64,000 bases of DNA from Candidatus Enterousia sp. (GTDB lineage: Bacteria; Pseudomonadota; Alphaproteobacteria; Rs-D84). The stretch lies in contig JAZLBQ010000003.1 in NCBI GenBank assembly GCA_045613785.1, forward strand, positions 32,001 to 96,000, in the 5' to 3' direction. The notes beneath the pieces were generated by a model that was given only the letters and a program-made list of their open reading frames with translations, searched no databases and was not told the DNA's origin. Below are positions 9,482 through 61,308 of the stretch, piece after piece. Positions within the stretch are counted from its first letter, which is position 1. Each line of letters opens with the position of its first letter. The translations under genes and the position numbers were made by a program.

Positions 9482-10504
9482 ATGAGAAGTTGGGGTATTG
9501 TTGTTTTGTGTTGTGTATTTGTAAATGCTGCTGTGGCAGAAGAAGGAGTGTTGACTCGTGCGGCACGCAGTTTTTTAAAGCCACAAAGTTTTCCAACTGT
9601 ATTTAGTGATGCGTCTTTTGAAACCAGGATGCGGGTTTTGGCTCAGGGATATGAACCATGGGAGACGGAATATGATTCAAATGGGCGATGCATAAGTGGT
9701 TGTGCATATAGCACGATGGATATAGACGAAGATTTGCGGCGTATGCAACAACAAACGCAAACTGCTGTGGCGGAACTGCAAAGTCAGGGGGCGTTGCCGT
9801 TATCTGTTTCACAACAAGGACAGGTTGTGCCGCCAAAGCCAACGCAGGGGCATGTGTCTTTGGGGCAGGGTGTAGAATCTGTTCAGTCGGCACAGACCTC
9901 GCAGACTGTTCAGGTCGTTCAAAATATATTGCCTGGTGTTCAGCAAATATTTCAAGGTCAAACAAATACAGGGGTGTCGTCTAATGAAAATCTGACTCCG
10001 CAGTTTCAATATTTGTCACATACGGAGAATAGTATCCCATTGCATAATTTGCGTGCTGATATTGACTATGCCTCTATCCAGGCGAAAACAACATACGATG
10101 ATTGGTTTCAGGGGTGGCCTATTGGTTGGCCGGTTAAAGGACGCCCAAAGATTACGTCGCCTTTTGGACGTAGAACTCACCCCGTTACAGGAAATCAGCA
10201 AAATCATACGGGGGTAGATTTGGCGGTCGCAAGTGGAACAGATGTTTTTTCCCCGGCAAATGGAAAAGTGGTTAGTGTTTGGACAGATGGAACGTGTGGA
10301 CGTGGGATAAAGATTTCGCACAGTTCTGGCTATGAAACACTTTATTGTCATCTGGATAAGCAGTTGGTTCTGCAAAACCAGCAAGTAAAAAAAGGTGATT
10401 TGATTGCAAAGTCTGGTAATTCAGGTCGCAGCACAGGATCACATTTGCATTATGCGATTAAAAAAGATGGAATTTATATCGATCCTGCAGAACTAATGCA
10501 ATGA
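9482..10504 (+). CDS. Secreted M23 family metallopeptidase
   Basis: Signal peptide; C-terminal HTGVD, YCHL, STGSHLHY. Confidence 0.9.
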   Translation: MRSWGIVVLCCVFVNAAVAEEGVLTRAARSFLKPQSFPTVFSDASFETRMRVLAQGYEPWETEYDSNGRCISGCAYSTMDIDEDLRRMQQQTQTAVAELQSQGALPLSVSQQGQVVPPKPTQGHVSLGQGVESVQSAQTSQTVQVVQNILPGVQQIFQGQTNTGVSSNENLTPQFQYLSHTENSIPLHNLRADIDYASIQAKTTYDDWFQGWPIGWPVKGRPKITSPFGRRTHPVTGNQQNHTGVDLAVASGTDVFSPANGKVVSVWTDGTCGRGIKISHSSGYETLYCHLDKQLVLQNQQVKKGDLIAKSGNSGRSTGSHLHYAIKKDGIYIDPAELMQ

Positions 10505-10873
10505 TTTTTTATCTGAACGCTTGAAACGAACGAAAAAACTGCCGTTGTTGATTGGTTGAAATGATATTATGTATGGGGACAAAACACTGTCTGTTGCCCA
10601 TTGTTGAAATTTGATTTTTAGTATTCCACTGGCCCCTGTGATTATGTTGGCTGTGCGAGTTCCTGATTTTGCCAGGCTTAGTATTGCTGACCAGGCTTGT
10701 TCTTCGGTCAGAGTGTGCAGGTCAAGAACGCTGTGCTGTGGGGTTGGTGGAGTGTGCGGAATTCGGCTGGATAGGTGCAGTTCAGAACGCACAGAACGGC
10801 GGACCGCCGTGTCATCAGGTGTGATTTCTTCGCCTAGCATATGTTTGATATCGTCGTCAGTTAGCTTCTTCAT
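10493..10873 (-). CDS. Smr domain protein
   Basis: LDLHTLTEEQA…IITGASGILK…NNGSFFV Smr pattern. Confidence 0.8.
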   Translation of the reverse strand: MKKLTDDDIKHMLGEEITPDDTAVRRSVRSELHLSSRIPHTPPTPQHSVLDLHTLTEEQAWSAILSLAKSGTRTANIITGASGILKIKFQQWATDSVLSPYIISFQPINNGSFFVRFKRSDKKSLH

Positions 10874-11670
10874 AATGTTTGAATAATGTTGTTTTGCTGT
10901 GATGGGGTGAATACTAGGACACGTTCAATGCCTGCTAAATCAGGTTCAGAACGCAGTAAATCCCAGCCGTTTGAAATAAATATTGTTTTTATGTCTGTTC
11001 CTTGGTTTATGCCGATTTCCAGGAACAATTTGCCGTCTGGTTTTATCCAGTGCTTGGCATTCTTTGCAATCGATTGATAGGCAGCTAGACCATTGTTTGC
11101 TGCATAAAGTGCTATATGTGGGTCGTGGATAGCACCGGCATCTACACGGGAATCTTTATATGGGATATAGGGTGGATTTGAAACAATTATATCAAATCGT
11201 TCGCCAAAGTCGTATGGGCGATTAAATGTTGTTCGAATTGTTTTGATTTTTGATTCTAAGCCCAGGTTTTTTATGTTGTGACGGGCAACATTTAAGGCAC
11301 GGCGAGATTTGTCAATCGCAATTCCAGATGCGTCTGATATGTTCTTGACCAATGAACATATTATACAGCCTGTGCCTGTGCCTAAATCCAAAATACGTGG
11401 GGTAGTGTCTGATAAAATGTCTGATAAAACAGCGGCAACTAATGTTTCCGTGTCAGGACGGGGGTCAAGTGTGTATTTGTTTGTATAAAAACACAAACCA
11501 TAAAACCATTTTTTATGAATTAGTTTGGCAACTGGAACATTGCGTCGTAATTGGTGTGCCAAATAAAGGATATAAATCCTGGAAAATTTTTTAGTGTTTT
11601 CAGTTATAACACGGGCAGCACGAATGCCACCGGCTTGTTGTAAGACTGTGAATGCTTGATTTCTGTTCAT
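10870..11670 (-). CDS. prmC: Release factor glutamine methyltransferase (HemK/PrmC)
   Basis: PRPDTETLV, LDLGTGTGC, SNPPY; start moved to MNRNQAF at 11670. Confidence 0.9.
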   Translation of the reverse strand: MNRNQAFTVLQQAGGIRAARVITENTKKFSRIYILYLAHQLRRNVPVAKLIHKKWFYGLCFYTNKYTLDPRPDTETLVAAVLSDILSDTTPRILDLGTGTGCIICSLVKNISDASGIAIDKSRRALNVARHNIKNLGLESKIKTIRTTFNRPYDFGERFDIIVSNPPYIPYKDSRVDAGAIHDPHIALYAANNGLAAYQSIAKNAKHWIKPDGKLFLEIGINQGTDIKTIFISNGWDLLRSEPDLAGIERVLVFTPSQQNNIIQTL

Positions 11671-11712
11671 AAAGGCATTATAATCGCTGCTATGAAAAAA
11701 GCAAAAGATATT

Positions 11713-12951
11713 ATGAATACACGCAATCTGACACGGCTGGTGGTGGCATTGGCTGTGTTGTTGAGTTTGGTTGCGATTTTCTTGGTTTTGACCAAGCGAA
11801 CTCCTGGGCAAATACGGGCGGCACGACTAAATGAATGCAAGTCTGTGGTGGTCGTTTCTTCTGGTGATACGTTATCAAAACTGTTGTTGGAACAGGGCTT
11901 GAATCATAATGATGTCAACACTATTGCCAGTGTTTTGAAATCAAATGCAGAAATTACAACGCTGCGTGCAGACCGTGATAAATTGGAATTTGTTCGGGCG
12001 ACAGATGATGCACCTGTGTCAAAAATCGTCGTTATTCCTTCGCCATGGCGTCAGGTAGAATTGACTTGCAATGAATCCGGTGCTTGGGATTGCAAGACGG
12101 TTGATATTCAGCGTGATACAAGGGCGATTTATAAAAGCGGTGAAATCTTGGACGGGGATAGTTTCTATCTGGCTGGGCAACGTGCTGGAATTCCTGCTGG
12201 AATTTTGGCAGATGTTTATGATTTGCTGGCTTTTGAAATGGACTTTGAGCGTGATGTTCGGGCTGGACAAAAATTCTCGGTTTTGTATGAAGAAAATTTT
12301 TCCGAAGGTAAAAAAATCGATAATGGTCGGGTCTTGGCTGTTTCATTCGAGGCACTGCGTGGCAATGTGCAAATGTATAGATTTAGAAAATCAGATGGAA
12401 CAACGGGATATTATGATGCTGAAGGTAATGGTGCAATAAAGTCTTTGAAAAGAACGCCAATAAATAATGCTAAAATTACCAGTAATTTTTCCAGAAATCG
12501 TAAACACCCGGTTTTGGGCTATACACGTGCCCACAAGGGAGTTGATTTCCGTGCTTCAACTGGCACACCGATTCCAGCCGCAGGGGCAGGGCGTGTTGTT
12601 GCACGCAGTTTTAATCGTGGACATGGTAATTTTGTAAAGATTAGACATAACGGTTCATACGAAACGCTTTATGCACATATGTCCAGATTTGCCAAGGGCG
12701 TAAATGTTGGAACAACTGTTCGTCAGGGGCAGACGATTGGATATGTTGGGTCAACGGGTTATTCAACAGGGCCGCATTTGCACTATGAAATTATCAAAGA
12801 TGGTGTTCATGTGAATCCAATGACAGTTAAATTGCCAGCGATTAGTAATCTGGGAAAAGAAGACAAGAAAAAGTTTATTGAATATCGTAAGATTCTAGAT
12901 GATGGCATAAAACAGTTGGAAAAAAATCCAGCAATGTATATCCAGTTGTAA
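11713..12951 (+). CDS. Membrane-anchored M23 peptidoglycan endopeptidase (MepM-like)
   Basis: N-terminal TM, SGDTL LysM-like region, DFERDVRAGQKF, HKGVD, STGPHLHYE; start could instead be 11692. Confidence 0.88.
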   Translation: MNTRNLTRLVVALAVLLSLVAIFLVLTKRTPGQIRAARLNECKSVVVVSSGDTLSKLLLEQGLNHNDVNTIASVLKSNAEITTLRADRDKLEFVRATDDAPVSKIVVIPSPWRQVELTCNESGAWDCKTVDIQRDTRAIYKSGEILDGDSFYLAGQRAGIPAGILADVYDLLAFEMDFERDVRAGQKFSVLYEENFSEGKKIDNGRVLAVSFEALRGNVQMYRFRKSDGTTGYYDAEGNGAIKSLKRTPINNAKITSNFSRNRKHPVLGYTRAHKGVDFRASTGTPIPAAGAGRVVARSFNRGHGNFVKIRHNGSYETLYAHMSRFAKGVNVGTTVRQGQTIGYVGSTGYSTGPHLHYEIIKDGVHVNPMTVKLPAISNLGKEDKKKFIEYRKILDDGIKQLEKNPAMYIQL

Positions 12952-14525: not shown

Positions 14526-14636
14526 TTACCTTTATATTATATAACAAAAATCAAAATGTTTACATTTTAGTCTTGCCTTGTTTAGACTAAATGTGTGATA
14601 ATATAATCACATTTAGGATTGGAAGAAAATAGAAAA

Positions 14637-17600
14637 ATGATAAAAAAATTAGTTTCTTTTGTTTGCTGCCTTTTGCCAATAGGTGCAGGGGCTGTTGTCG
14701 TTAGTCCAGAATCTGGACAAAATTCAATTTCAACTGAACAAGCGTCTTGGACAGAGGCGATTGGGGCAGGTAGTTCAATTACTATCAATAGTGCCGCTGT
14801 CAATGGTATTTCATCGGCAAATGGTTTTTCTATTGCTAATAATATGTATGTTGGTATGCCAACAGATCAGGGAAGTATCAATGGTGATTTGTATGTTTTG
14901 AATAGTGTTCAAAACCCTTTTACCGTTGTTTCGACCGGTGATATTTCTATTGGTGCAATTTTGCAGGTCTTGGACGGCAAGACATTGGGATTCAAGACAT
15001 CTGATACAAATCCAACGGCTTTTGATTTGACTGTTGGTTCGGGAAATGTAAATGAAGGTATCAAGATTGGTAGTGCCGAACAAAATGCAACGTTAAATCT
15101 GGAAAATATTGATGTTTTGACGGTTGATGGTTCTGTGATTGCATATGGTAATTTTTCTGCGTCTGCAAATTCTGTGAATATGGGATTGGTTAATGCAAAC
15201 ACTGGAAATATGACTGTCAATGCAACCGGCGATGTTGCTGTTGGTGGATTGGTCGCAAACAGTGATGGGACAACAAATATTACAGCAGGTGGGGTGCTTT
15301 CTTCTGATGGAACAATCCAGAATAATGCTGGCACAATGAACCTGGTCGCTGGTGATGATATCAATGTTGTTGGTAGCGTTGAAAATAAGTCTGCAGGAAA
15401 TGTTTCTATCCGTGGGGCGGATATGACGGTTAGTGAAATGCTGACAAATGAGGCTTCTTCTGCAACATTGACAATGAATTTGGATTCTTTGACTGTCAAT
15501 GGTGGCACTCAATCAGCATATTCTTTTGTGAATAGTGGAAATTTGTTTGCAACGGTCAAAGGAAAAACATATCTGGAATATGGTATGAATTTGGGCGGTA
15601 TGACCAAGGATAATGTGTTTAATTTGGATACGGGAACATTGGAATTTGGTTCAAGTGCAACTAGTCAGACTTGGTTTAATGCTTTCTCTAATTATCTGGA
15701 TAGTTTTAATCTGGCGGTGCGTGATGGTGATATCAATGTTTCAACTATTTTGAACGGAATCAATTCAGATGGTGTTGCAAATGCAACAGCGGATATGGCT
15801 ATTTTGGCTCAGAATATTAGTGCAACAACAATTCGTAACAATGGTAAAACATTAGTAGTCAAGGCGGCAGATTTAGATTCTGGATATGATATCGTCGGAC
15901 CAGCTGCCGATTCGTCTGTTGGTAATATCAATGTATCTGGTCAGATTATCGGGGCTGCAGGAACAACAACTGATGTTATTGCATCTGGAACATTGACTGT
16001 TCTGGGTGCTGTTTCTAATAATGCAGATATGACGTTAAACGGTAATGCTGTAAATTTGGCTTCTGTGTCTAATTCTGGTGTTGATGCGGATTTGACAGTG
16101 TCTTCGCTGACAGCATCAACTGGTGTGGTCGAAATTTCAGGCAATGTTACAAATTCTAATGGAAATACAACAATCTGGGCCAAAGACGTTAGTATCGCTG
16201 GCGTTTTGACAAATAATGGTGGAACAACAACTGTTCGTGGTTCTGATACAGCAGGTGGGGCGGTTGAAATTGGCTCTGTCGTTGCATCTGCAGGAACGGT
16301 CAATTTGAACGCTTTGGCTGGCAGTATGATGATTGATAATGTTGTTACCGTTGCAGGTGGAACATTGAATTTGGGCGATAGTCTAAAGAATTTGACCGTA
16401 GGCGGCAGTGTTCAAATCGCAGGTGATTTGACAGCCAGTGCTAATAATGCTGTCAATGCAGGTGATGTAAATATTGCTGCTAGTGGTAATCCGGCTTTTG
16501 TCTTGGGGGCAGATGCGGTTGTTATTGGCGGAAATGTCAATGTTGTTGATAGTTCGGTTGTGCGTAATGTTCAAATCGATTCGGCTTTGATTGATGTTTC
16601 TGGTGATGCGACAGTTGAAAATCTGGGAATGCTGACGCTGGGGAAAAGCCCAGATTCATATGTGAAAATTGATGGCGATTTAATTGCAAATAATGGCGGT
16701 GTCTTTGAAACATACGCTGATGATTTGATTGCTGGTTCTGTTTCTGGAAATGGAAAATTCCTTGTCCACGGCGAGAATATTACTGCGGATAATGGAAATA
16801 TTGATATCGCAGGAAATGTTTATTTTGATCCTACCAATGATCCAACCGCACCAACTGCTGGTATGATTGTTCGTGATACTACGACTTTGACATTAAAGAC
16901 CGCCGCAGATGGCACGGATATTAGTGTTGGTGCAACATCTGTTGGAAATGGTAATACGCTGGCTTTGGAGTCTGCAGATGAGGTAGAAATTGCTGGTCTG
17001 TTGGCGAATAACGGAACTGTGCGTGTAAATGCAACGGGTGCTGCAAAAGTGGCAGGAAATATCCAAAATACGGGAACTGTTGATATTGCAGCTGCAACAA
17101 TTGAAACTTTGGATTTGCAAAATTCGGGCGATGTTGTTTTGAATTCCGAATCGGGGGCTGTAAACGTTGCTAATGTTGCAAACAGTGGCTCGTTGAGTGT
17201 TGTGGCGGCGACCGATTTTGTTGCAGGTGCTGTTTCTCAGACTGGCGGTGTGATGGATTTGACCGCAGATTCTGTTTCAATGCAAAGTTTGGTGGTTAGT
17301 GGTGCTGCAGGAACAATGGCTAACGTAAATGCGGATAGCCTTGATGTTGCTGGTAATATCAATGTTGCTGGAAATATGAGCCAGGGTGGCACAGATGCGA
17401 TGTTGAATTTGCAAGCAAGTAAACTGTCGGCAGCAAATTTGACAGTTGGTGGCGAATTTATTGCGACATCTGGTGGAACAACCTATGAAATTGGCTCAAA
17501 CGTCAATTTGGTTGGTGGATTGAATGTTGTTGGTGCTGCGACAGTGTTGTTTAATGCAGGTGGGTCTATCACTGGTGGTGATTTAACAAATGCTGGTGCG

Positions 17601-19844
17601 TTGACATTAAATGCAACAGATGGAATCGAATTAGGTAAAATTATCAGTAATTCTGGGGTCATAAATATTGATTCTGGTGATGGAGTGTTGGAGTTGACAA
17701 CACTGACGATGAATGGTGGTAATTTGACTTTAGATGGTGTCGGTTTGATAACAGATTATGCATTTAATCCAGGGGCAATGTTGTATCAGAAATACACTGG
17801 TGCTTTGTTGACCAAGGATGTAAATATTGTTGCGGATAGTTATCAGATTTCAACGTCTAATTTGGTTGTGGCAGGCATCAATCAAAATGGTAAATTAGTA
17901 GTCAATTCTAGTGATATTGATGTTGGTGGTGATATCGTAGCGACAGATTTGGAATTTGTTGCGGTCAAAAATGCAGATGATGAAACAATTTGGCAAAATG
18001 TTGAGGTCGCTGGAAATGTTTCAGGCGGAGTTGACTTTATCGGTCTGGAAAAAATGACAATCGGAGGTAATTATATCTTTGATTTGAACAGTCGTTTGTA
18101 TGCTGCGGTCTTGCCATATGCGACGGGCGTCTCGTTAGATACGACGGATATAAATTATTGGTCCACAATTAGTCTGAAAGATGATAACACGTTGGGTGAT
18201 ATCACAAATGCTGATGATGGTCAGGCAATGATTAGTGTTGGTGGTGTGTTCACATCAGGTGTTCAATATGATGGCGAAACTATCAGTAATACACCGGGAG
18301 CTGTCTTGTCGAATGGGCAAATTGGTATTTCGTTGTTTGATGTTGTTGACCAGGGAACTGCAATTTGGTTCTTGCATGCAGATGGTGGAGTTGAAAATTT
18401 CAGCCAGTTAGAGCAGTTGCGTAACTTGGATGTAAAATTCTGTAATGCAGATGGTTCGTTGTGTTATAACTATCTGGAATCGCTGGATACTAAGAACGGA
18501 ACTGATTCTGATTTGCCTGTGTTTGTATCGGTGCGTGATTCGGATGAAGATGGTGTTTCAGATAGTTTGTATATCGTATTTGATCCACGCTTTGGTGGCC
18601 CAAAACTGATAGAAGATATGAAGATTCAGCCGATTGTTGGTCGTGAACCAGATCATACAGAAGGTGAATATGTATCAGCGGGGGCTTTAGATGATTTGCT
18701 AGCTGGTCAGGCACATAATAAAAAGTTCTTTAACGGGACACCAATCGAGGTTATTCCACTGATTTTCAAAAATACAAACATGGAACAGATGTCCCAGGAA
18801 CTGTATGATCGTATGGAATATTATGTTGAAAACGCCGAAGGAGAAGGATTGGCCAGATTTAGTCGTTTGTTCCAGGTTCGTGAATTGGAACAGATTATGG
18901 GCAGTATCTCGCTGAATGAACATACAACTTTCCGTTCATTTGAAGATCGTATGTATGACGAATTCATTTGGAATCGTAATCGTCAGTTGAAAAAGGCGTG
19001 GTTAGATGTTGATTATGGTATGTTCTATCAGAATATTGATGATGGTAAGCATACAGATGGACATCGTTTCAGTGTTTCAGGTGGTTTTGATTGGCAAGAA
19101 TCAAATACGCTGGTTTTGGGATTGACTGGACGTGTTTCACATACGTCGTCCTTTGCACACGATGATATGAATTTGGGATATAAACCAGATGAATTCATAG
19201 CAGGGGATGTTCGTATCGATGTCAAGGACACAGATGTTGCGGTCGGTGGATATTTGATGCAGATTTTGAACGAAAAAATGCGTTTGTATGGTAATGCTTT
19301 CTTGGATTTGCATGTGTTTGATGTGAATCGTTCGCAGAACTTTGTTGATTCAATTGATGGCGATGGTCTGTCATTCAGTATGATTACAGAATGGGGATTG
19401 ATGCATGATATCTTGAATCAATATGTTGTTGGAAATCTGTATGCACGTGCTGGGTATAACTTTGGTTTCAGTGTCAAGGAAAAGGCAGCAGGTGATGACT
19501 ATATGCGTTTGAAGTCAGATGGATACTTTATCTTTACACCAGGGTATTCGTTGACTGCACAAAAGCGTATTTACCCATCTGCTTGGTTCCAGATTCGACC
19601 ATATGCATCGATTGGTGTAGAATATGATGTGTTTGGGGCGCCAGATTTTGCAAAGTATAAGTTTGTGCCAGCAGATGAATTTACCCGTTATGATATTGAA
19701 ATTGATCCTTTGTGGGCAAATATCGGTGGTGGTATAGAAATGTTGTCTGCAAGTGGTATTCAAGTTGGTGTTGATTATCGTTATCAGTATAATAATGATA
19801 TTCAATTACATAATATCAGGGTATCGGGATCGTATAGATTCTAA
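14637..19844 (+). CDS. Large autotransporter adhesin-like protein
   Basis: Signal peptide, about 1300 aa G/N/V/A-rich beta-helical passenger, C-terminal barrel ending SGSYRF. Confidence 0.85.
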   Translation: MIKKLVSFVCCLLPIGAGAVVVSPESGQNSISTEQASWTEAIGAGSSITINSAAVNGISSANGFSIANNMYVGMPTDQGSINGDLYVLNSVQNPFTVVSTGDISIGAILQVLDGKTLGFKTSDTNPTAFDLTVGSGNVNEGIKIGSAEQNATLNLENIDVLTVDGSVIAYGNFSASANSVNMGLVNANTGNMTVNATGDVAVGGLVANSDGTTNITAGGVLSSDGTIQNNAGTMNLVAGDDINVVGSVENKSAGNVSIRGADMTVSEMLTNEASSATLTMNLDSLTVNGGTQSAYSFVNSGNLFATVKGKTYLEYGMNLGGMTKDNVFNLDTGTLEFGSSATSQTWFNAFSNYLDSFNLAVRDGDINVSTILNGINSDGVANATADMAILAQNISATTIRNNGKTLVVKAADLDSGYDIVGPAADSSVGNINVSGQIIGAAGTTTDVIASGTLTVLGAVSNNADMTLNGNAVNLASVSNSGVDADLTVSSLTASTGVVEISGNVTNSNGNTTIWAKDVSIAGVLTNNGGTTTVRGSDTAGGAVEIGSVVASAGTVNLNALAGSMMIDNVVTVAGGTLNLGDSLKNLTVGGSVQIAGDLTASANNAVNAGDVNIAASGNPAFVLGADAVVIGGNVNVVDSSVVRNVQIDSALIDVSGDATVENLGMLTLGKSPDSYVKIDGDLIANNGGVFETYADDLIAGSVSGNGKFLVHGENITADNGNIDIAGNVYFDPTNDPTAPTAGMIVRDTTTLTLKTAADGTDISVGATSVGNGNTLALESADEVEIAGLLANNGTVRVNATGAAKVAGNIQNTGTVDIAAATIETLDLQNSGDVVLNSESGAVNVANVANSGSLSVVAATDFVAGAVSQTGGVMDLTADSVSMQSLVVSGAAGTMANVNADSLDVAGNINVAGNMSQGGTDAMLNLQASKLSAANLTVGGEFIATSGGTTYEIGSNVNLVGGLNVVGAATVLFNAGGSITGGDLTNAGALTLNATDGIELGKIISNSGVINIDSGDGVLELTTLTMNGGNLTLDGVGLITDYAFNPGAMLYQKYTGALLTKDVNIVADSYQISTSNLVVAGINQNGKLVVNSSDIDVGGDIVATDLEFVAVKNADDETIWQNVEVAGNVSGGVDFIGLEKMTIGGNYIFDLNSRLYAAVLPYATGVSLDTTDINYWSTISLKDDNTLGDITNADDGQAMISVGGVFTSGVQYDGETISNTPGAVLSNGQIGISLFDVVDQGTAIWFLHADGGVENFSQLEQLRNLDVKFCNADGSLCYNYLESLDTKNGTDSDLPVFVSVRDSDEDGVSDSLYIVFDPRFGGPKLIEDMKIQPIVGREPDHTEGEYVSAGALDDLLAGQAHNKKFFNGTPIEVIPLIFKNTNMEQMSQELYDRMEYYVENAEGEGLARFSRLFQVRELEQIMGSISLNEHTTFRSFEDRMYDEFIWNRNRQLKKAWLDVDYGMFYQNIDDGKHTDGHRFSVSGGFDWQESNTLVLGLTGRVSHTSSFAHDDMNLGYKPDEFIAGDVRIDVKDTDVAVGGYLMQILNEKMRLYGNAFLDLHVFDVNRSQNFVDSIDGDGLSFSMITEWGLMHDILNQYVVGNLYARAGYNFGFSVKEKAAGDDYMRLKSDGYFIFTPGYSLTAQKRIYPSAWFQIRPYASIGVEYDVFGAPDFAKYKFVPADEFTRYDIEIDPLWANIGGGIEMLSASGIQVGVDYRYQYNNDIQLHNIRVSGSYRF

Positions 19845-51147: not shown

Positions 51148-51176
51148 TTTTATGCTTTGATAAACTGGTTTAGTTT

Positions 51177-52421: not shown

Positions 52422-52427
52422 TAGTTT

Positions 52428-52645: not shown

Positions 52646-53458
52646 TTATTTTATTTTGTTTCTTTTTATTGTGTTGAATAATGTATGGCGATTTTTCAAA
52701 TATAAATCGCATTCGTTAGCGTTGGCGGTTGTTGGGTTGGTGAACATCCGTTTGAACATTTGTGTTTGACCCCATTCCCCAAGATTGTATTTGTTAAACA
52801 TTACAAGGTCGTCAATGCTGATGTTTTGGCAGTAGTTGTATGTGTTTTCAATCGCAATTGATAAGGTGGTTTGCTCGGCACGTAAGAAACCGCTTTCTTC
52901 AAAGGTTGGGGTTTTCTTGTTTTGTATTTGCGAGCGTATAAAATCAAGACTGTTGTAGATTTCACTGTCGCAAGGTCCAAATTCCCATGCTTTCCATTCA
53001 AAGCAACTGATTGGGGAATCTGTTGGGATTTTGGTGTATTTAGATTTTGTTGTCTGGTATTCAAGCCATAACAGGTATAGCAACGCCATTATTTTAATGT
53101 TTTTGGGGGTGTTGTTTTGTATCTGGTCGGTAAATTTTGATATCAGATATGTGGCGACAGATATTTTGTTAAATTTTGGCTGTTTGTCTAAATTTATTAG
53201 GTGGGGCAGCGTGTAGTTGTCGCATAGGCGTGATATTGCCCTGGCCTGTTCGATTGCGGCTGTATAAGAAGTCCAATTAGTAATTTGTTCTAGTGTGCCA
53301 TTTTGTGATAAGAAACGTTCGATGGTTTGGCCGTTTATGGCTGGTTTGTATCGTTCGTTTGGATTATAACTGTGGTTTGATGTTGCGCCTAGCTCACAGC
53401 GTTCTGGACAGCCGTCGCATTTGCGAATGTTTGTCTGATTTGTTTGGCTAAATGGCAT
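52646..53458 (-). CDS. Panacea/SocA (DUF4065)-like domain protein with N-terminal Cys-containing extension
   Basis: VATYLI…IKIMALLYL…WKAWEFGPCDSEIY resembles the DUF4065 core; N-terminal CDGCPERC. Confidence 0.6.
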   Translation of the reverse strand: MPFSQTNQTNIRKCDGCPERCELGATSNHSYNPNERYKPAINGQTIERFLSQNGTLEQITNWTSYTAAIEQARAISRLCDNYTLPHLINLDKQPKFNKISVATYLISKFTDQIQNNTPKNIKIMALLYLLWLEYQTTKSKYTKIPTDSPISCFEWKAWEFGPCDSEIYNSLDFIRSQIQNKKTPTFEESGFLRAEQTTLSIAIENTYNYCQNISIDDLVMFNKYNLGEWGQTQMFKRMFTNPTTANANECDLYLKNRHTLFNTIKRNKIK

Positions 53459-53560
53459 TTTTTTGAATCCTTGTTTATTGTTGTTCTTTGTTAGAATTTT
53501 ATATCAAATATTTGTTATAGCAAGTTGATTTTTGTTGGTTTGTGCGATAGAATTGTCTGT

Positions 53561-54268
53561 ATGAGATTAGATGTAGAATTAGTAAATAGAAATTTGTATC
53601 CAAGTCGAGCCAAAGCTGTTGCTGGTATCGAAGCTGGGTTGGTTTTGGTCAATGGCGTTGTTGCAAAGAAACCAAGTCAGGCGGTTCTGGAAACAGACGT
53701 AATAGTTGCTGATGCGTTGCCGTATGTTAGTGGTCGTGGCAGTTTAAAGTTAGTTCGTGCGTTGGATTATTTTAATGTCAATCCGTCTGGTATGGTTTGT
53801 TTGGATGTTGGGGCTAGCACGGGTGGTTTTACCGAGGTTTTGTTAAATCGTGGTGCAAAGCGTGTTTATGCGGTCGATGTTGGGACAAATCAGTTGGTCC
53901 CGGAATTGAAAAACGATCCTCGAGTTGTGTCGTTAGAGCAAACAGATATTCGCACCCTGCCCGTTCAAGAAACGGTTGAGTTGGTGGTGGTTGATGTTTC
54001 GTTTATTTCGTTGACGGCGATTGTTGATAATTTAAAAGCATGGGAAGCAAAAAAGGTAATTGTTCTGGTTAAACCTCAGTTTGAAGTGCCGCGTGAAGTT
54101 GCTGCAAAAACAAACGGTGTAATAAAAGATAAACAATGGCACGATTGGTCGGTTGAACGTGTTGTAAAAGCGTTTTCAGAGGTCGGTTTTACTTTAGATG
54201 GACTGACGGAGTCTCCGGTTAAAGGTGGTAGTGGGAATACAGAATTTTTGGCGTATTTTAAGTTGTGA
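53561..54268 (+). CDS. tlyA: TlyA family rRNA 2'-O-methyltransferase
   Basis: S4 domain RLD…SRAKA, YVSGRGSLKL, DVGASTGGFT, DVSFISL, VKPQFE, GNTEF. Confidence 0.93.
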   Translation: MRLDVELVNRNLYPSRAKAVAGIEAGLVLVNGVVAKKPSQAVLETDVIVADALPYVSGRGSLKLVRALDYFNVNPSGMVCLDVGASTGGFTEVLLNRGAKRVYAVDVGTNQLVPELKNDPRVVSLEQTDIRTLPVQETVELVVVDVSFISLTAIVDNLKAWEAKKVIVLVKPQFEVPREVAAKTNGVIKDKQWHDWSVERVVKAFSEVGFTLDGLTESPVKGGSGNTEFLAYFKL

Positions 54269-54316
54269 TAAAAGTTTAAGATAGAAAAATATCCGCCTGA
54301 AAATTGCGGATATTTT

Positions 54317-54652
54317 TTATTGTCGTATTTTTGATGTTTTGTTTAGAAGCGTTTTTTTCTCGTTGATTATATTTTGGTATTTGTCAGATTTTTTTGTGGC
54401 AAGTTTACTGTGATCCATCGCCCCCCAAGTGGCTATTAGTAGTGCGATTGATATTGCTATTGATGTTAAAACAGTTTGGTCGGTATTGTTGATTTCAATT
54501 GCCTTTTTAATTGCAATAATTAATGCAGCACCAGCACCACTGCTCGTGAGAATTGCAATGTCTCTTGATAAATCGGCTTGTTTTTGAAAGTATTCTTTTT
54601 TTTCTTCGTAAAGCTTTATTTCTTGTTTTGTGGATTGTTTCTTTTTATTCAT
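54317..54652 (-). CDS. Small two-TM hypothetical protein
   Basis: Basic termini, two hydrophobic segments, GGGGA RBS. Confidence 0.65.
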   Translation of the reverse strand: MNKKKQSTKQEIKLYEEKKEYFQKQADLSRDIAILTSSGAGAALIIAIKKAIEINNTDQTVLTSIAISIALLIATWGAMDHSKLATKKSDKYQNIINEKKTLLNKTSKIRQ

Positions 54653-54675
54653 GGTTTCTAATTCCCCTTGGTTTT

Positions 54676-54969
54676 TTAGCGGGATTTTATTTTGTTGTTT
54701 TTATGGCGTAGTTGCTTTATTTGTCGTTGTGTTTTGTTGTAATGTTGCTTGGTGCTGTATGCACATCCATATAGAATTGCAGCAATTAACGCTAGAGCGA
54801 TGGCTGAATCTGTTTTTTCGTCCATGGAATATGCTACTGCGGCGATAAGTGAGCCACAACCGCCGCATATCGCTAGGACGGATGCCCATTTTGAATCCGT
54901 GGCATTTCGTTTCATTGTTTTTATCAATTTGTTGTTTCGTTCGATTTTATTTTGTTTCTGACTGCTCAT
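54676..54969 (-). CDS. Small two-TM hypothetical protein
   Basis: Same topology as its neighbour; AAGG RBS. Confidence 0.65.
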   Translation of the reverse strand: MSSQKQNKIERNNKLIKTMKRNATDSKWASVLAICGGCGSLIAAVAYSMDEKTDSAIALALIAAILYGCAYSTKQHYNKTQRQIKQLRHKNNKIKSR

Positions 54970-55095
54970 CTTATGCTTACCTTTGTTTTTTTGCTATTTT
55001 TATGCATTAAATTTAAAAAATCAAGGAATCTTCTTGAAAAAAAATGAGGATAGCGGTATGGTATAGCAAGTTTTTACATAAAATAGGAATTGAAA

Positions 55096-57492
55096 ATGGC
55101 AGATGATATGACAAAAATCCATGAGCGTGAGGCAAAATGGCAGAAAAAATGGCATGATGAACGTGCTTTTGTGCCAAAAAATGATGGGTCAAAGCCTAAG
55201 TATTATAATTTGATTGAATTTCCTTTTCCGTCTGGTTCGGGATTGCATGTTGGTCATATGTTGCCATATACAGGTATGGACGTCATGGCACGTTTTCGTC
55301 GTTCTCGTGGGTATGATGTGCTGTTCCCAATCGGATACGATTCAATGGGAATTTCGTCCGAAAACTATGCTACCAAAATTGGAAAACATCCAAGTGAATC
55401 TGTGGCAGAACTAATCAAGATTTTTGAACGTGATATTTCTATTATGGGATTGTCTTTTAATCCGGAATCTAAATTATCTACGTCTGATCCAGAGTTTATC
55501 AAGTGGACACAGTGGATGTTTATTCAGTTCTTTAAGGCGGGGCTGGCATATAAATCTGAATTGCCAATGAACTGGTGTCCTGCATGCAAAACAAATCTGA
55601 CAAATGAAGAACTGGAAGATGGTTGTTGTGAACGTTGTCATGGACCAGTCGAAAAGAAAATGAAGTTGCAGTGGAATTTGGCAATCACTAAGTATGCTGA
55701 TCGCTTGATTGATGATTTGGTGCATGTTGACTATCCAGAAAGAGTCAAAACAGAACAAATAAATTGGATTGGTCGCTCTTATGGTGCAGATGTCGATTTT
55801 ATGGTTGGCGAAGATAAAATGACGGTCTATACCACACGTGTTGATACTATATTTGGTGTGACCTTCTGTGTCGTTGCCCCAGAACATGCTTTGGTTAAGA
55901 AGTGGATAGAAGAAGGTAAAATCACAAATGTTGATGCAGTGAATGACTATATCGCAGCAGCACGTGCCAAGTCTGAATTTGAACGAACAGATGTGACTAA
56001 GGATAAAACTGGTGTTCGCCTGGAAGGTGTTATGGCCAAGAATCCATTTAATGGACGTGAAATACCTGTGTTTATTTCAGACTATGTTTTGGCGGACTAT
56101 GGTTTCGGTGCAATTATGGCGGTGCCTGCACATGATGGTCGTGATTGGGATTTTGCAAAAAAGTTTGGTCTGGAAATTATCCCTGTTCTGGCAGGTGGTG
56201 AGCCTGATAAGGTTTGGGAAGAAGATGGTGTGCATATAAACTCTTCGTTCTTGGACGGTATGGGCAAAGAAGCAGCTATTGCAGCAGCAATTAAATATGG
56301 TGAAGAACACGGCTTTGCACGTGGAACTAAAAAGTATAAGTTAAAAGATTGGGGTTTTTCTCGTCAGATGTATTGGGGCGAACCAATTCCATTGGTCTAT
56401 TGTGAAAAGTGTGGTTGGGTGCCAGTGCCAGAATCTGAATTGCCATTGATGCAGCCGTATATGGCAGATTATAAGCCAACCGATGATGGCGAAGGACCTC
56501 TTGCCCGTGCAACAGATTGGGTAAATACAACTTGTCCGCATTGTGGAGCACCAGCACGTCGTGAAACAGATACTATGCCACAGTGGGCTGGATCTTCATG
56601 GTATTTCTTGCGTTATCTAGATTCAAAGAACAATGATGAATTCTGTTCTCGGACACAACTGGATAAATGGATGCCAGTTGACCATTATAACGGTGGTATG
56701 GAGCATACAACTCGTCATTTGCTGTATTCTCGGTTTTGGTATAAAGCGTTGGCAGATTTAGGATATGTGCCAGGTATCGAACCGTATAAAAAACGCACCA
56801 GTAATGGTTTGATTATGGCAGCAGATGGATCGAAAATGTCAAAATCACGTGGTAATACAGTGCCTAGTTCAGACGTTGTTGCACGCAGTGGTGCAGACGC
56901 ATGTCGTTTGGCTATTTTGTATTTAGGACCATGGGAACAAAGTGCGAATTGGTCTGAAGATACATTGCGTGGTGTGGAAAGATTCTTGAAGCGTGTTGAG
57001 GCATTGTCAGATAATTTGACGGATGAGCCAATGACAGCTGCCCAAGAACGTTTAATGCACAAGTTGATTGCAGATGCAACAGATCGTATTGAAAATATGA
57101 AGTTTAATACTGCGATTTCTGCAATGATGGAATTTATCAATGCGTTTAGTGGTGGTATGCCCCGCCCTGCGTATGAAACATTGTTGCAGGTGCTGAATCC
57201 TTTCGCACCGCATTTAACCGAAGAAATGTGGGAACGTTTGGGACATAGTGATATGCTGGTGTTCCAGCCATGGCCAACATTTGATCCAGCGAAATTGGTT
57301 GAAACAGAAATCACAATCGTTGTGTCGGTAAATGGTAAGCGTGCAAATGACTTTGTTGTGCCAGCAGATAGCAATGAAGAAGCAGTTGTTGCAGCTGCCA
57401 AAGTTGCAGCAGGTGCAAAACTTGATGGGGCGACAATTATCAAGACGGTTGTTGTGCCAAAGAAGTTGGTCAACTTTGTGATAAAGAAATAA
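55096..57492 (+). CDS. leuS: Leucyl-tRNA synthetase
   Basis: FPFPSGSGLHVGH, YTTRVDT, RETDTMPQWAGSSWY, KMSKS. Confidence 0.97.
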   Translation: MADDMTKIHEREAKWQKKWHDERAFVPKNDGSKPKYYNLIEFPFPSGSGLHVGHMLPYTGMDVMARFRRSRGYDVLFPIGYDSMGISSENYATKIGKHPSESVAELIKIFERDISIMGLSFNPESKLSTSDPEFIKWTQWMFIQFFKAGLAYKSELPMNWCPACKTNLTNEELEDGCCERCHGPVEKKMKLQWNLAITKYADRLIDDLVHVDYPERVKTEQINWIGRSYGADVDFMVGEDKMTVYTTRVDTIFGVTFCVVAPEHALVKKWIEEGKITNVDAVNDYIAAARAKSEFERTDVTKDKTGVRLEGVMAKNPFNGREIPVFISDYVLADYGFGAIMAVPAHDGRDWDFAKKFGLEIIPVLAGGEPDKVWEEDGVHINSSFLDGMGKEAAIAAAIKYGEEHGFARGTKKYKLKDWGFSRQMYWGEPIPLVYCEKCGWVPVPESELPLMQPYMADYKPTDDGEGPLARATDWVNTTCPHCGAPARRETDTMPQWAGSSWYFLRYLDSKNNDEFCSRTQLDKWMPVDHYNGGMEHTTRHLLYSRFWYKALADLGYVPGIEPYKKRTSNGLIMAADGSKMSKSRGNTVPSSDVVARSGADACRLAILYLGPWEQSANWSEDTLRGVERFLKRVEALSDNLTDEPMTAAQERLMHKLIADATDRIENMKFNTAISAMMEFINAFSGGMPRPAYETLLQVLNPFAPHLTEEMWERLGHSDMLVFQPWPTFDPAKLVETEITIVVSVNGKRANDFVVPADSNEEAVVAAAKVAAGAKLDGATIIKTVVVPKKLVNFVIKK

Positions 57493-57521
57493 TAAAAAAT
57501 CCCCCAAACGGGGGATTTTTT
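57493..57521. terminator. Bidirectional intrinsic terminator
   Basis: aaaaaATCCCCC-aaac-GGGGGAT-ttttt. Confidence 0.78.
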
Positions 57522-57539
57522 ATTTTAGGTTATATTTTA

Positions 57540-57986
57540 TTATGAAATTTTTTCAATGCGACGAATGCGACGTTCGATTGCATCAAATGGGCTTTCCAGG
57601 AATGATTGAGCAGTTAGGAAAGCAACTTCGATATCAATATCGTCTGCGGCCAGTGCCAAGACGTTTATATCATCGTGAAAACGATCGTCGTGTGCCTGAG
57701 ATGGTGTGTTGCATCGTGAAGCACGAATATGGCGATAGCGGTTAGCCGCAATCATTACACCTGCACCTGTGCCACAAATGATGATTCCACGGGCGTTTTT
57801 GTCGTCCAACATTGCATCTGCTAATGTTGCAGCGACATCTGGGTAGTCCGCAGATGTGTTTGGGTCGTCAACGCCAAGATTTACAACCTCATACCCAACA
57901 GTTGATAACATTTCGATTAAATATAACTTTAACCCTGCCCCACGGTGGTCGGCCGCAATATAGACCTTGGATATGTTTTTGTTCAT
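57540..57986 (-). CDS. rpiB: Ribose-5-phosphate isomerase B family
   Basis: AADHRG, DYPD, ICGTGAG…AANR, RRIEKI. Confidence 0.9.
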   Translation of the reverse strand: MNKNISKVYIAADHRGAGLKLYLIEMLSTVGYEVVNLGVDDPNTSADYPDVAATLADAMLDDKNARGIIICGTGAGVMIAANRYRHIRASRCNTPSQAHDDRFHDDINVLALAADDIDIEVAFLTAQSFLESPFDAIERRIRRIEKIS

Positions 57987-58333
57987 TTGTCGTTGTCCTT
58001 TCGTTTTTCAAGTTTACATTCCAGGCCTGTGTTGCCAGTAATGTTTAATGTGTGATATGACAGCGTGCCAGTCATTTTGGCAGCACTGAAAATATTTGCA
58101 GTCGTAACAGTTGCAGGGCCTTCTAGGGTGCCGTGTAAAAACAAGACTGGTGTTTGAACTGCACCAATAACACGGCCACCACGACCGATTACAACCGTTT
58201 CAGCAGTGATGTCGCCAACCACTTCGCCGTGAATTTGCACGTTGTGGTCGGTTTTTATATCACCTGTCAATTTGCAACCTGCCCCGATGACGGTTGGGGA
58301 TTGTTTTTCGCTTGAATTCGTAAATGCTAACAT
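57983..58333 (-). CDS. Bactofilin (polymer-forming cytoskeletal protein)
   Basis: TVIGAGCKLTGDI…QIHGEVVGDI…VVIGRGGRVIG beta-helix repeats. Confidence 0.85.
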   Translation of the reverse strand: MLAFTNSSEKQSPTVIGAGCKLTGDIKTDHNVQIHGEVVGDITAETVVIGRGGRVIGAVQTPVLFLHGTLEGPATVTTANIFSAAKMTGTLSYHTLNITGNTGLECKLEKRKDNDK

Positions 58334-58335
58334 TG

Positions 58336-59613
58336 TTATTCTTCCTTTACAAATTTTGTTGGGTCAAAAGGCGAACCTTTGTATCTGATTTCGTAGTGTA
58401 GATGTGGCCCCGTTGAACGACCAGAAGAACCAGCCAGACCAATCACTGTGCCAGGACGAACCCAGTCGCCACGTGATACCAATATTTGCGATAGGTGGGC
58501 GTATAATGTTGTAAAGCCTAGCCCGTGGTCAATTTCAACAGTTGTGCCATATCCAACACGTTCTCCGGCTGAGACAACACGGCCAGGTGCGACCGCCATC
58601 AATTCTGTGCCAATTTTGCCAGCAAAATCAAGACCACGATGTTTCTTGGGCTTGCCAGTAAATGGGTCGTTGCGTGTGCCGTAATTTGATGTAATGCGTG
58701 AACTAACAGGCTTGCCCAAAGGTAAAATTTCGTTTAATCTACGCAGACCGTTCCAACGTTCCAGACCATCTGCTAGTTTTTGATATTTTTCGTCCAAGTC
58801 TTTGTCAAATTCAATCGGCGTAAAGGCAGAGCCGACCAATGGATTGGTGTATTTGTTTGCGTTTCTTAATAATGTTGTTTGGCTTAAACCCAGTGTCGCA
58901 AGCGTGTTGTTTATGCGTTTAATGTTCTTTTGTAATTCGTCCGTGTTTTCCTTGGTCAGAGATGTGACAGTGTCAACAATTATGTTGTCTGCGTCCATTA
59001 TTTCTGCCATTGTGTCCAGCATCTGGGCGTTGCGTTTCTTTAAGTCTTCGTTTTCTGCACGGGTTAGTTCGTATTCGGCAGATAATTCAGATAATTTTGT
59101 ATATTCTGGTGTAAAATCTTCGTTGCCCAGCATTTCAACAATACGGGTGCGTAAAAAATCTAGTTCACCCCATGTCTTGATGCGGGTGTTCATCAATTTT
59201 TCTTTGTCTGTGTCAGAAAGTTTTTTTGCATTTAGAACTTTGTCATCAATAATGTTTAAATCACGCACTAGGCTGTTATATTTTGTCAGATAGGTTTGCA
59301 AATCAGACATATGACGGGTGTGAGTGCTGCGTGCTTCTTCTAGTTGTTGGGTGCGTTTTTGCAGCAGTGGGCGGTGATATACAAATACATACGTTGACCA
59401 TGATGCCCATAAAACAAGTCCCACCTTGCCGCAAAAACGGGTAAAACGCCAAAAACTGCTTTGCCCATAGGTGTAAACGTTGCCTCGTGGTGTGTCCATA
59501 ACCGTGAACTCACGTGGTGGAAATATGCGAACAATCAATCGCCATATTGCACGAAATGGTGATGTTATGAATGCCCATAGCGATGTAAAATATCGTGTTA
59601 TAAAGTTTATCAT
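58336..59613 (-). CDS. Membrane-anchored coiled-coil M23 endopeptidase (LmdC/Csd1-like)
   Basis: N-terminal cytoplasmic part, TM, coiled coil, HRGLD, YAHL, STGPHLHYE; directly upstream of bactofilin. Confidence 0.88.
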   Translation of the reverse strand: MINFITRYFTSLWAFITSPFRAIWRLIVRIFPPREFTVMDTPRGNVYTYGQSSFWRFTRFCGKVGLVLWASWSTYVFVYHRPLLQKRTQQLEEARSTHTRHMSDLQTYLTKYNSLVRDLNIIDDKVLNAKKLSDTDKEKLMNTRIKTWGELDFLRTRIVEMLGNEDFTPEYTKLSELSAEYELTRAENEDLKKRNAQMLDTMAEIMDADNIIVDTVTSLTKENTDELQKNIKRINNTLATLGLSQTTLLRNANKYTNPLVGSAFTPIEFDKDLDEKYQKLADGLERWNGLRRLNEILPLGKPVSSRITSNYGTRNDPFTGKPKKHRGLDFAGKIGTELMAVAPGRVVSAGERVGYGTTVEIDHGLGFTTLYAHLSQILVSRGDWVRPGTVIGLAGSSGRSTGPHLHYEIRYKGSPFDPTKFVKEE

Positions 59614-60293
59614 TTCTGGGTCAGTTTAGACAAAATATCGTCAATAGTCAAGCCATCACGCAAAATTGGTTCGTGATTCATAGGCAAGCCTTGGTGGATT
59701 GTTGTTATTCCTTTTGTGCCTAGACGGCCAGATAACAGAACTCGCTCAGCAGTGTTTTTGCCACCAAATAGGGGTAAAATTCGGATGTCGCCAAGTTTTG
59801 TCGCCATTTGACCGATTGCTAATGCCGCTGTTGCTGCATCGGTAATCATACAAAATGTTCCCATCGGTTTAACCCGTGCAATGCATCGGGATATCCAATT
59901 TTTTAAATCTGCGTTATGGTGGGCATTGTGATTGGCAGGTGTGCCGTTAAAATACGGCGGATTCGTGATAACTAGGTCAAATGTGCGGTTCGTTCGCCAT
60001 GTGTAAATGTCGTTTGATAATAATTCAATGTTTTTGTTGTTTAATTCACAATTTATCTGTGTGGCGTTTAGCATTTGATCGGAAACGTCAATGCCCGTTA
60101 TTTGGGCTTTGGGATTGTGGTTTAGCAGGCATAATGAAACACCCCCTGTTCCAATGCCCACGTCTAGAACTGTTTTTGCGTTTGTTGGTGCAAATGCTGC
60201 TAGCCATACCGCATCAGATGTTGGGTTGTAATGACTGTGTCGCATTTGAATACGACCGCCTAAAAGGCTAAAAAAATCTTGTTTTATGCTCAT
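59610..60293 (-). CDS. SAM-dependent methyltransferase (tRNA1Val m6A37, YfiC-like)
   Basis: DAVWLAAF, LDVGIGTG, ITNPPYF. Confidence 0.8.
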   Translation of the reverse strand: MSIKQDFFSLLGGRIQMRHSHYNPTSDAVWLAAFAPTNAKTVLDVGIGTGGVSLCLLNHNPKAQITGIDVSDQMLNATQINCELNNKNIELLSNDIYTWRTNRTFDLVITNPPYFNGTPANHNAHHNADLKNWISRCIARVKPMGTFCMITDAATAALAIGQMATKLGDIRILPLFGGKNTAERVLLSGRLGTKGITTIHQGLPMNHEPILRDGLTIDDILSKLTQK

Positions 60294-60333
60294 AGCTATT
60301 TATAATAAAGCATTAAAAGCAAAAGGCAAGTTT

Positions 60334-61308
60334 ATGTTAGATAATATGATTGTTGTGCAAAGTGCAGTTAGTGCGTTTAATAATGCGGCGTTGTTGGCAC
60401 CTGCGTTTTTATGGTGGGGATTGCTGGCGGTGCCTTTGTTTGCGTTTGTGTATAAATATTCAGGTTTGTTCTGTGAGAAGTTAAATTGCGATATCAAAAA
60501 TGTTTCTGTTTGGACTGTTGGTTTGATTTTTGCTTGGGTTGTTTTGTTTGGTGGGGCATATAATGTCTTGCGTGATAGTTTATCAGTGTTGCCTTTTACT
60601 GTTGCAATGATTTTGTTTTTGTCTGCGTTATTTGTTTCTTCGCATATGAGAAATCGACCCCTGCCCCGTATGACGTGGTGGCGGATATTGATGATCGCTG
60701 TGTGCGTGGCGTTGATTGGTATGTCTGATATGCATGTGTGGTGGGGACCGTTATTGCAGATTGGGGCAACTGTTCTTGGTTTCTTTCTGGGACGTATGGC
60801 CAAAGGGGAAATGAGACCTGTGGCTGGGACTTTGTTGATTGTGCTGTGTGTAGCGACAGCAATGTTGATGCAGCCAGAGTTCTTTAGATTTGGACAGTTA
60901 GGAAATTTGACTGTTGCACATTTAGGTGCAATGTTGCTTTTGGCGATGGCAGCAATGGCGGCAATCGCAACGTTGAATATTAAATCTTCTGGTAAAGTCA
61001 AAAGAAGTATTTTTGTTAAATTAAAATGGTTGATGCGTGTCTTGTGTGCGTTGGGTGCTGCCCTGTTTATTATTACAGAAGCGGTGCCGGTATTTATTGG
61101 AACTATGGCCGCAATGTTTGTGATGTTTGCGGTGTCTGTGTGGCACAGTCGTGCAGATTTTGAACAGTTTGGGGTTATGATGTTTGCGCTGGCTTTGGTG
61201 ATGTTTGGAATAATTACTGTTATGCCTGTTATTACTGTGTTGGGGGTTTTGTTATGGCGTAATCAAAAATGTGCTGATTTTAGACAGTTAGTCAGACGTT
61301 TGTTATAA
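60334..61308 (+). CDS. Polytopic membrane protein, unknown function
   Basis: About 10 hydrophobic segments; start taken at MLDNM. Confidence 0.75.
   Translation: MLDNMIVVQSAVSAFNNAALLAPAFLWWGLLAVPLFAFVYKYSGLFCEKLNCDIKNVSVWTVGLIFAWVVLFGGAYNVLRDSLSVLPFTVAMILFLSALFVSSHMRNRPLPRMTWWRILMIAVCVALIGMSDMHVWWGPLLQIGATVLGFFLGRMAKGEMRPVAGTLLIVLCVATAMLMQPEFFRFGQLGNLTVAHLGAMLLLAMAAMAAIATLNIKSSGKVKRSIFVKLKWLMRVLCALGAALFIITEAVPVFIGTMAAMFVMFAVSVWHSRADFEQFGVMMFALALVMFGIITVMPVITVLGVLLWRNQKCADFRQLVRRLL

Follow-up and report, generated by a model that had tools for sequence, protein, structure and literature searches.

In bacterial chromosomes, the dif site, the point of convergence of the FtsK-orienting polar sequences (KOPS) and the switch in GC skew nearly always coincide. 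For 578 genomes, the available part of Kono 2011 (PMC3025954) places dif within 0.00–1.39% of the skew shift point (one sigma), and even the outliers there do not exceed 3%. Here, we analysed a window of 64,000 nucleotides from Candidatus Enterousia (Alphaproteobacteria), namely, G000:C3:32001-96000, in which a dif-like XerC/XerD site is approached from both sides by KOPS-type octamers while the strand composition passes through the site unchanged. The separation between dif and the skew switch in this genus is well outside the published range, as far as the available part of that study gives it. We consider it likely that dif and KOPS are stably separated from the replication terminus throughout the genus, with the two forks meeting approximately 70–90 kb past dif.

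The window's own assembly, G000, is a metagenome-assembled genome (MAG) of 1,044,118 bases in 26 contigs with an estimated completeness of 96.5%. The genus belongs to the order Rs-D84 and has genomes of about 0.75–1.0 Mb, according to the available part of a study of Enterousia genomics (PMC12306168); a term search of that part gave no occurrences of 'skew' or 'replication', and our literature search brought up no study that deals with dif, skew or replication in Enterousia.

The dif-like site is located at 51484–51511 on the + strand and consists of an 11-bp arm, a 6-bp spacer and a second 11-bp arm (28 bp in total). Compared with E. coli dif as printed in Kono 2011 (PMC3025954), 22 of the 28 positions are identical, and the central 20 bases (51487–51506) are the same. 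With up to three mismatches allowed, this 20-mer gave only one match in the whole G000 assembly. Searches for the same 20-mer found it in each of the 24 further genomes of the genus and, across the order, in 38 of the 41 genomes searched (G000 included). G000 encodes exactly two tyrosine recombinases, best matched as XerD (288 bits) and XerC (286 bits), and an FtsK gamma domain (PF09397, 86.6 bits) was found in a 796-aa frame on contig C24. As in the dif/XerCD/FtsK–KOPS system of E. coli and Vibrio cholerae, Enterousia therefore combines the same central 20 bases in single copy with an XerC-like protein, an XerD-like protein and FtsK gamma, and the site is the exact point at which KOPS switch strands. 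From these sequence features, it is predicted to be a working dif.

The candidate steering motif, GGGCAGGG, occurs exactly eight times in the window. Five copies are on the + strand to the left of dif (9863–9870, 12584–12591, 23016–23023, 42424–42431 and 47832–47839) and three are on the − strand to its right (53955–53962, which is on the C-rich strand, 57933–57940 and 60659–60666), so that all eight point toward dif. The chance expectation was 0.74, eight copies were reached in none of 100 shuffles, and a broader search of the window with GGGNAGGG recovered the same eight sites without further variants. An earlier reading of this DNA from its letters (hereafter, the sequence-only reading) had reported both the dif-like site and the eight converging octamers, and our counts, coordinates and strands agree with it.

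The polarity of this motif extends over the chromosome. On every large contig of G000, GGGCAGGG was found on a single strand, save for C3 (which carries dif), C26 (which carries an origin-type skew switch) and the accessory contig C21. For the comparisons below, domain A denotes the chromosome from the origin to dif, domain B the part from dif to the skew switch, and domain C the remaining arm. When the octamers in about 934 kb of G000 were all ranked de novo for their polarity from origin to dif, GGGCAGGG ranked first, with 88 copies toward dif and none away from it (33/0 in A, 17/0 in B and 38/0 in C); variants overlapping GGGCAGGG ranked next and were polar in B too. The genome-wide KOPS map, noted in the sequence-only reading as a check, thus shows a polarity that switches at dif and diverges at parAB: KOPS diverge at C26:94068 to 98107, with parA and parB at C26:96.4–98.2 kb, and parAB are arranged likewise with diverging KOPS in the related genome G043 (contig C6). 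In this respect as well, Enterousia resembles E. coli and V. cholerae, having a GGGNAGGG-type octamer whose copies all point away from the origin and to dif, and GGGCAGGG is a putative working KOPS. In the relative G003 (945,057 bases in two contigs), the most polarised octamers were GGGGCGGG (79/11) and GGGCGGGG (77/11), together with GGGGCAGG (26/0), and GGGCAGGG occurred about 25 times in all; the steering motif may have broadened in GC-richer species.

In contrast to the motif, the skew did not change at dif. The GC skew of the + strand was positive in all 32 of the 2-kb windows, ranging from 0.048 to 0.435. The end of domain A (1–51483), in which KOPS and skew are co-oriented and + would be the leading strand, had a GC skew of +0.24, while the start of domain B (51512–64000), in which KOPS lie on the − strand and the skew is still positive on the + strand, had a GC skew of +0.22. 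At third codon positions read on the + strand, the GC skew to the left of dif was +0.47 for + genes and +0.35 for − genes, and to the right +0.50 and +0.34, respectively; fourfold-degenerate sites to the right of dif showed a GC skew of +0.40 and a TA skew of +0.13. Similarly, the non-coding DNA abutting dif gave GC and TA skews of +0.66 and +0.38 on the left and +0.49 and +0.44 on the right (+ strand). An origin of the skew in gene orientation was ruled out, since genes on both strands and intergenic DNA have the same sign. We take the skew to report fork direction. These values bear out the observation of the sequence-only reading that the + strand stays G-rich on both sides of dif, even within minus-strand genes, and also its view that segregation polarity is uncoupled here from the composition of the replication strands in a way that an inversion cannot explain.

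The sequence-only reading had favoured a single replication fork with origin and terminus both beside dif, that is, purely unidirectional replication with one leading strand all round. Such a mode would account for a + strand that is richer in G than in C on both sides of dif and, among the relatives, for G043, in which the GC skew at fourfold sites keeps its sign across the origin, dif and the skew step in about 700 kb sampled. The skew of the whole genome, however, is not monotonic. In G000, an origin-type switch lies at parAB, far from dif, at about 88–96 kb of C26, where the GC skew goes from about −0.17 to positive, and a terminus-type switch lies at about 98–106 kb of C12, where the skew goes from weakly positive to −0.2 while the motifs remain on the + strand. 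The latter is roughly 87 kb past dif, the two switches are half a chromosome apart, and KOPS do not switch at the terminus-type one. Furthermore, every site class on the second G000 arm shows a weak skew in the direction of KOPS (raw +0.059, third positions about +0.10, fourfold sites +0.03 and intergenic DNA +0.05); the skew falls to about zero in the relative G045 and flips in G000, G003 and G044, in the last two with sign flips that are symmetric; and even in G043, the origin and the step are each marked at fourfold sites by a halving of the GC skew and a sign reversal of the TA skew. A search of G000 for a Tus-like barrier found none (PF05472; RTP was not searched). Replication by one fork starting and ending beside dif is therefore very unlikely, and it is the alternative mentioned in the sequence-only reading, a terminus long displaced from dif, that fits the skew switches lying 69–90 kb past dif in the five genomes compared. 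A DnaA-like gene of G000 (C24:80502-81728; 256 bits, below the NCBIfam cut-off of 343.9) sits within a uniformly skewed arm, and the G003 region homologous to it is about 180 kb into contig C1, away from the parAB origin-type switch.

In G000, domain B comprises 40 kb at the right of C3, C10 in full (31.5 kb) and a terminal ~15 kb of C12, about 87 kb with gaps uncounted, in the order C3, C10 and reversed C12 given by synteny with G003. At the fourfold sites of 426 G000 genes with homology to G003, the GC and TA skews were +0.365 and +0.108 in B and +0.330 and +0.071 in A, and this match held for genes of either orientation. The orientation of genes in B also leans with a fork running through dif (31+/23− for the right part of C3 plus C10, and 6 of 8 genes for the end of C12). 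Skew-driven octamers reverse in domain B (for example 5/17, 3/13 and 3/16), and, after masking of KOPS, octamers with at least six G numbered 74 on the KOPS strand versus 251 on the opposite strand. Because GGGCAGGG in this domain points toward dif in 17 of 17 cases while other G-rich octamers favour the opposite strand, we conclude that the polarity of the motif follows dif and that the skew follows the forks. Domain B is thus presumably copied by a fork that has already passed dif.

The same architecture was observed in relatives in which dif and the skew switch are on one contig, namely, G003:C1 (515 kb), G045:C4 (278 kb), G043:C5 (301 kb) and G044:C10 (262 kb). In G003, dif is at C1:388,644, the KOPS switch is at dif, and the cumulative skew maximum is at C1:478,283, 89.6 kb beyond. 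The maximum was 81.3 kb past dif in G044 and 69.4 kb in G045, and G043 shows a fall in skew at a distance of about 80 kb from dif on the same side. The distance from dif to the switch is accordingly 69–90 kb, corresponding to 9.5% of the chromosome in G003 and roughly 7.5–9% in the others. In all five Enterousia genomes, the switch falls inside the block tsaD–xseA–recN–addA–rpoD; the genes at the C12 switch of G000 are rpoD, a gene for a 641-aa hypothetical protein, addA, recN, xseA and tsaD. At this switch in G000, addA reads as two overlapping frames of 867 and 194 aa (G000:C12:100764-103806, L164:8764-11806), the shorter of which matches just the C-terminal end of the AddA model; the split may represent a frameshift or a broken gene.

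To fetch further related loci, leuS (55090–57492, + strand, to the right of dif) was used as the anchor; the LeuS relatives belong to Candidatus Enterousia or uncultured Alphaproteobacteria from animal guts. Of the 75 loci examined, 53 contained dif close to leuS, and its orientation relative to leuS was the same in 51 of them. In the 40 loci with at least 3 kb on each side of dif, the GGGCAGGG counts were 20/0 on the left side and 0/55 on the right. The skew exceeded +0.03 on both sides of dif in 39 of these loci and flipped at dif in none, the sole exception being L036 with −0.08 on the left and +0.22 on the right. A recent inversion or a recent move of dif was ruled out, as the pattern is common to genomes whose LeuS is 69–72% identical to that of the window, and as the fourfold skew of B equals that of A. 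Outside the order, the nearest LeuS relatives returned were Clostridia and Bacillota (53–54% identity; L111–L115), not other Alphaproteobacteria, which may reflect an old gene transfer or the sampling of the scan.

As sister groups, we compared five genomes belonging to two further families of the order. In three of them (G026, G035 and G028), the skew flips cleanly at dif, while G039 and G040 are noisy, with sign changes at dif and elsewhere; several of the genes neighbouring dif in Enterousia are also near dif in these families. Since the sister families flip the skew at dif, the displacement is a derived state; it dates back at least to the base of the Enterousia sampled here and has persisted stably from then on.

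Another reading is an artefact, with the MAG being misassembled or chimeric or the dif-like word having arisen by chance. G000 is indeed a draft MAG of 26 contigs, and the contigs of two public sequencing runs, X5 and X6, do not bridge dif; having no contig across it, these two runs are uninformative. Contigs from two of the four public runs, from two different studies, do bridge the site (X1 record 2 and X7 record 24), single contigs of four independent MAGs (262–515 kb) show the same architecture, and the site, which has no second copy in the assembly and is conserved in the order, is located exactly at the KOPS switch. We therefore regard an artefact of either kind as extremely improbable. 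To the right of dif, the X6 and X7 contigs are without 721 bases at 52,787–53,509, by which most of a 270-aa open reading frame (ORF; 52646–53458, matching no NCBIfam family) is gone, and this gap looks like a strain-level indel; in X1, the sequence at 52523–53082 is replaced.

Based on these results, we propose that the Enterousia chromosome would be replicated bidirectionally from an origin beside parAB, and that the forks would meet about 70–90 kb beyond dif, in the conserved tsaD–xseA–recN–addA–rpoD block, one fork running through dif and copying the next ~80 kb. Strand composition would be a mutational by-product of fork direction, and for this reason the G- and T-rich strand would remain unchanged across dif and switch at the meeting point. 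Selection, in turn, would keep GGGCAGGG in the orientation that steers FtsK to dif for dimer resolution by XerC/XerD, and because of this selection the motif would switch strand at dif even onto the C-rich strand. The skew-defined arms of G003 are about 497 and 448 kb, and its KOPS-defined arms are about 408 and 537 kb. The meeting point thus appears to lie roughly opposite the origin, where forks should meet if no fork trap exists (Galli 2019, as far as available), with dif off-centre. Either a barrier or simply the lengths of the arms may set the meeting point. An asymmetric inversion spanning dif, or an unequal loss of DNA from the arms, could have yielded this state with KOPS convergence intact, the skew later re-equilibrating to the new fork paths.

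Several points weigh against this proposal. Fork direction is read from composition only. The ~87 kb is a sum over three contigs ordered by synteny, the sizes of the gaps are missing from it, and small contigs totalling about 110 kb have no place in the order. For arms A and C, the orientation of some contigs was itself taken from KOPS, and the pooled count of 88/0 is thus partly circular; the counts within contigs are not, and the 7/0 distribution of GGGCAGGG in C3 beside dif is independent of such orientation. The XerC-like and XerD-like proteins score below the NCBIfam equivalog cut-offs (286 versus 335 bits and 288 versus 330 bits, respectively), and one of the two is above the subfamily cut-off. 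Finally, the two arms of G000, G045 and G043 fail to mirror each other, which plain bidirectional replication does not predict.

The inequality of the arms was analysed at fourfold sites in five species (G000, G003, G043, G044 and G045; G044 and G045 via one contig each). The GC skew of the strong arm was +0.33 in G000, +0.28 in G045 and +0.37 in G043, and that of the other arm in its own fork direction was +0.03, −0.03 and −0.17, respectively. In G000, in which the arms compared are C24, C1 and C3 versus C4, C7 and C12, the GC skews of domains A, B and C in their own fork direction were +0.33, +0.365 and +0.03, and the TA skews +0.07, +0.11 and +0.12. Read on a fixed strand, the GC skews of A, B and C were +0.22, +0.30 and +0.03 in G045, +0.38, +0.37 and +0.16 in G043, +0.13, +0.11 and −0.06 in G044, and +0.11, +0.08 and −0.07 in G003. 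The last two species thus have an ordinary V-shaped profile, with arms of similar skew size and opposite sign, while G043 shows no sign change on a fixed strand, the same strand being G-rich all round; on its origin contig, the GC skew was +0.21 to the left of parAB and +0.38 to +0.40 to the right, and the TA skew changes sign there. The difference between the arms at fourfold sites was a nearly pure swap of G for C. In an additive split of the fourfold GC skew, the antisymmetric part was 0.10–0.18 in all five species, and the strand-constant G>C part was about 0.01 in G003, 0.03 in G044, 0.15 in G000, 0.16 in G045 and 0.28 in G043. This extra strand-wide bias in G000, G045 and G043, for which we found no explanation, is the residue of the unidirectional idea. 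The strand-constant offset was found in the species of lower G+C at fourfold sites (0.66, 0.54, 0.45, 0.42 and 0.32 for G003, G044, G043, G045 and G000, respectively).

An addition to the proposal of separated dif and terminus would be a second, strand-specific process that acts all round a bidirectionally replicated chromosome and adds G>C and, in intergenic DNA, T>A as well, examples being an extra one-way round of synthesis or the exposure of one strand as single-stranded DNA. In its favour, the strand-constant part varies between species while the antisymmetric part is similar (0.10–0.18), the offset is present within single contigs (both sides of the origin on G043:C6 and both sides of the step on G043:C5), the weak arm of G000 is a plateau and not a gradient, and the two-level pattern is also seen in intergenic DNA between convergent or divergent genes. 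In the latter, the GC and TA skews were +0.17 and +0.10 in A and +0.05 and +0.01 in C for G000, and +0.17 and +0.11 versus −0.05 and +0.01 for G043; both skews are thus lower in the weak arm, where the TA skew at fourfold sites is not. No mechanism is known for such a process, the site classes disagree on its TA part, and the comparison covers five genomes only, with G044 and G045 represented by one contig each.

Two specific forms of the process were considered. A mixture of two-fork and one-fork cycles, which would fit intergenic DNA alone, appears inadequate for the weak arm: a simple mixture of bidirectional and one-way replication cannot account for a strong arm raised threefold over the level in G003 and G044, and it predicts a lower TA skew at fourfold sites of the weak arm, where +0.12 versus +0.07 was seen. 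Export of single-stranded DNA, or conjugation, as the one-way process found no support, VirB4-like and VirD4-like proteins being present in all five genomes, with or without the offset, and relaxases of two families (PF03432 and PF08751) in none of the five. Similarly, no correlate of the offset was seen among the repair genes searched, with MutY (weak matches below the cut-off) in 5/5 genomes, Fpg in 0/5 and Ung in 5/5. We therefore offer only as a tentative and rather improbable suggestion that a chromosome-wide one-way process, treating one strand differently, is superimposed on two-fork replication in G000 and G045 and, to the greatest extent, in G043; the second process in its general form is, to our minds, equally doubtful. 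If true, it would break the mirror symmetry of bidirectional replication. We know of no description of a chromosome-wide one-way process for bacterial main chromosomes. If the unequal arm skew is real biology, it would point to a strand-specific mutational process without a current explanation.

A coupling protein of the VirD4/TraG type is encoded in all five genomes at a distance of about 10 kb from the origin-type switch, and so is a VirB4-type ATPase elsewhere; the genes of this type IV secretion system in G000 are at C26:106263-107837 and C26:61309-61821. Because no relaxase of the two families was found, the system is probably not used for DNA transfer.

With respect to the genes of the window, the identities of prfA, hisS, mscL, tlyA, leuS, rpiB, lpxA and lpxB were confirmed, including the five (prfA, hisS, leuS, lpxA and lpxB) already named in the sequence-only reading. 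The left neighbour of dif is an mscL-like gene (50572–51147, + strand), which is followed by a stretch of 1.5 kb (51148–52645) that surrounds dif and contains no gene assigned to a family. The + strand of this stretch is 45% T and 26% G (GC skew +0.41, TA skew +0.40), and its sole ORF (52113–52424) encodes 103 aa and belongs to no family. Further to the left, a 1741-aa open frame (14619–19844, + strand) gave no NCBIfam match at E 1e-8. Elsewhere in G000, C21 (40.6 kb) has one ORF with a G003 homologue, carries KOPS against the skew and shows a mid-contig change in the sign of the AT skew, and the small contigs C2, C5, C6, C9, C11, C13, C17, C23 and C25 are purine-rich (G>C and A>T). C21 and these small contigs, which have no assigned position on the chromosome, probably represent mobile or accessory DNA.

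The separation of dif and KOPS from the skew switch in Enterousia is natural and stable, which makes the dependence between these features discernible. KOPS running against composition over ~80 kb (17/0 in G000, and 55/0 to the right of dif in 40 relatives) provide direct comparative evidence for selection tied to dif and against KOPS being a by-product of the G-richness of the leading strand. Likewise, a bacterium without a detectable fork trap can apparently persist for long with its dimer-resolution site replicated well before termination, a situation that should cause trouble according to reviews (available part of PMC10331603). These observations also call for caution with software that places termini by dif or KOPS.

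Compared with E. coli and V. cholerae, with which it shares the components and the polarity of the dif/XerCD/FtsK–KOPS system, Enterousia differs in that dif is off the skew shift point by 69–90 kb and KOPS lie on the C-rich strand over about 87 kb. An experimental parallel is provided by V. cholerae strains with ectopic origins, in which, according to the available part of Galli 2019 (PMC6549158), there is no fork trap, forks cross the terminus region and stop on meeting, and termination is movable away from dif. That case is engineered, short-term and based on marker frequency, as far as the same source describes it, whereas the Enterousia case is natural, genus-long and read from composition. 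In Sulfolobus solfataricus, the available part of Duggin 2010 (PMC3020120) describes dif outside the fork fusion zones, and termination and dimer resolution are set apart as we propose for Enterousia; Sulfolobus is, however, archaeal, has three origins and only one Xer, and lacks FtsK–KOPS, while in the bacterium Enterousia there is one origin-type switch and the polarity of KOPS is strict. Finally, unidirectionally replicated chromids and R1-type plasmids (Pseudoalteromonas; available part of PMC10331603) keep one sign of GC skew over long distances, as does G043 all round at fourfold sites. In such replicons, according to that account, the skew has one level and jumps once, at an origin beside tus. 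Enterousia, in contrast, has two skew levels with steps, at an origin and at a terminus, half a chromosome apart, a TA skew that flips and no Tus found.

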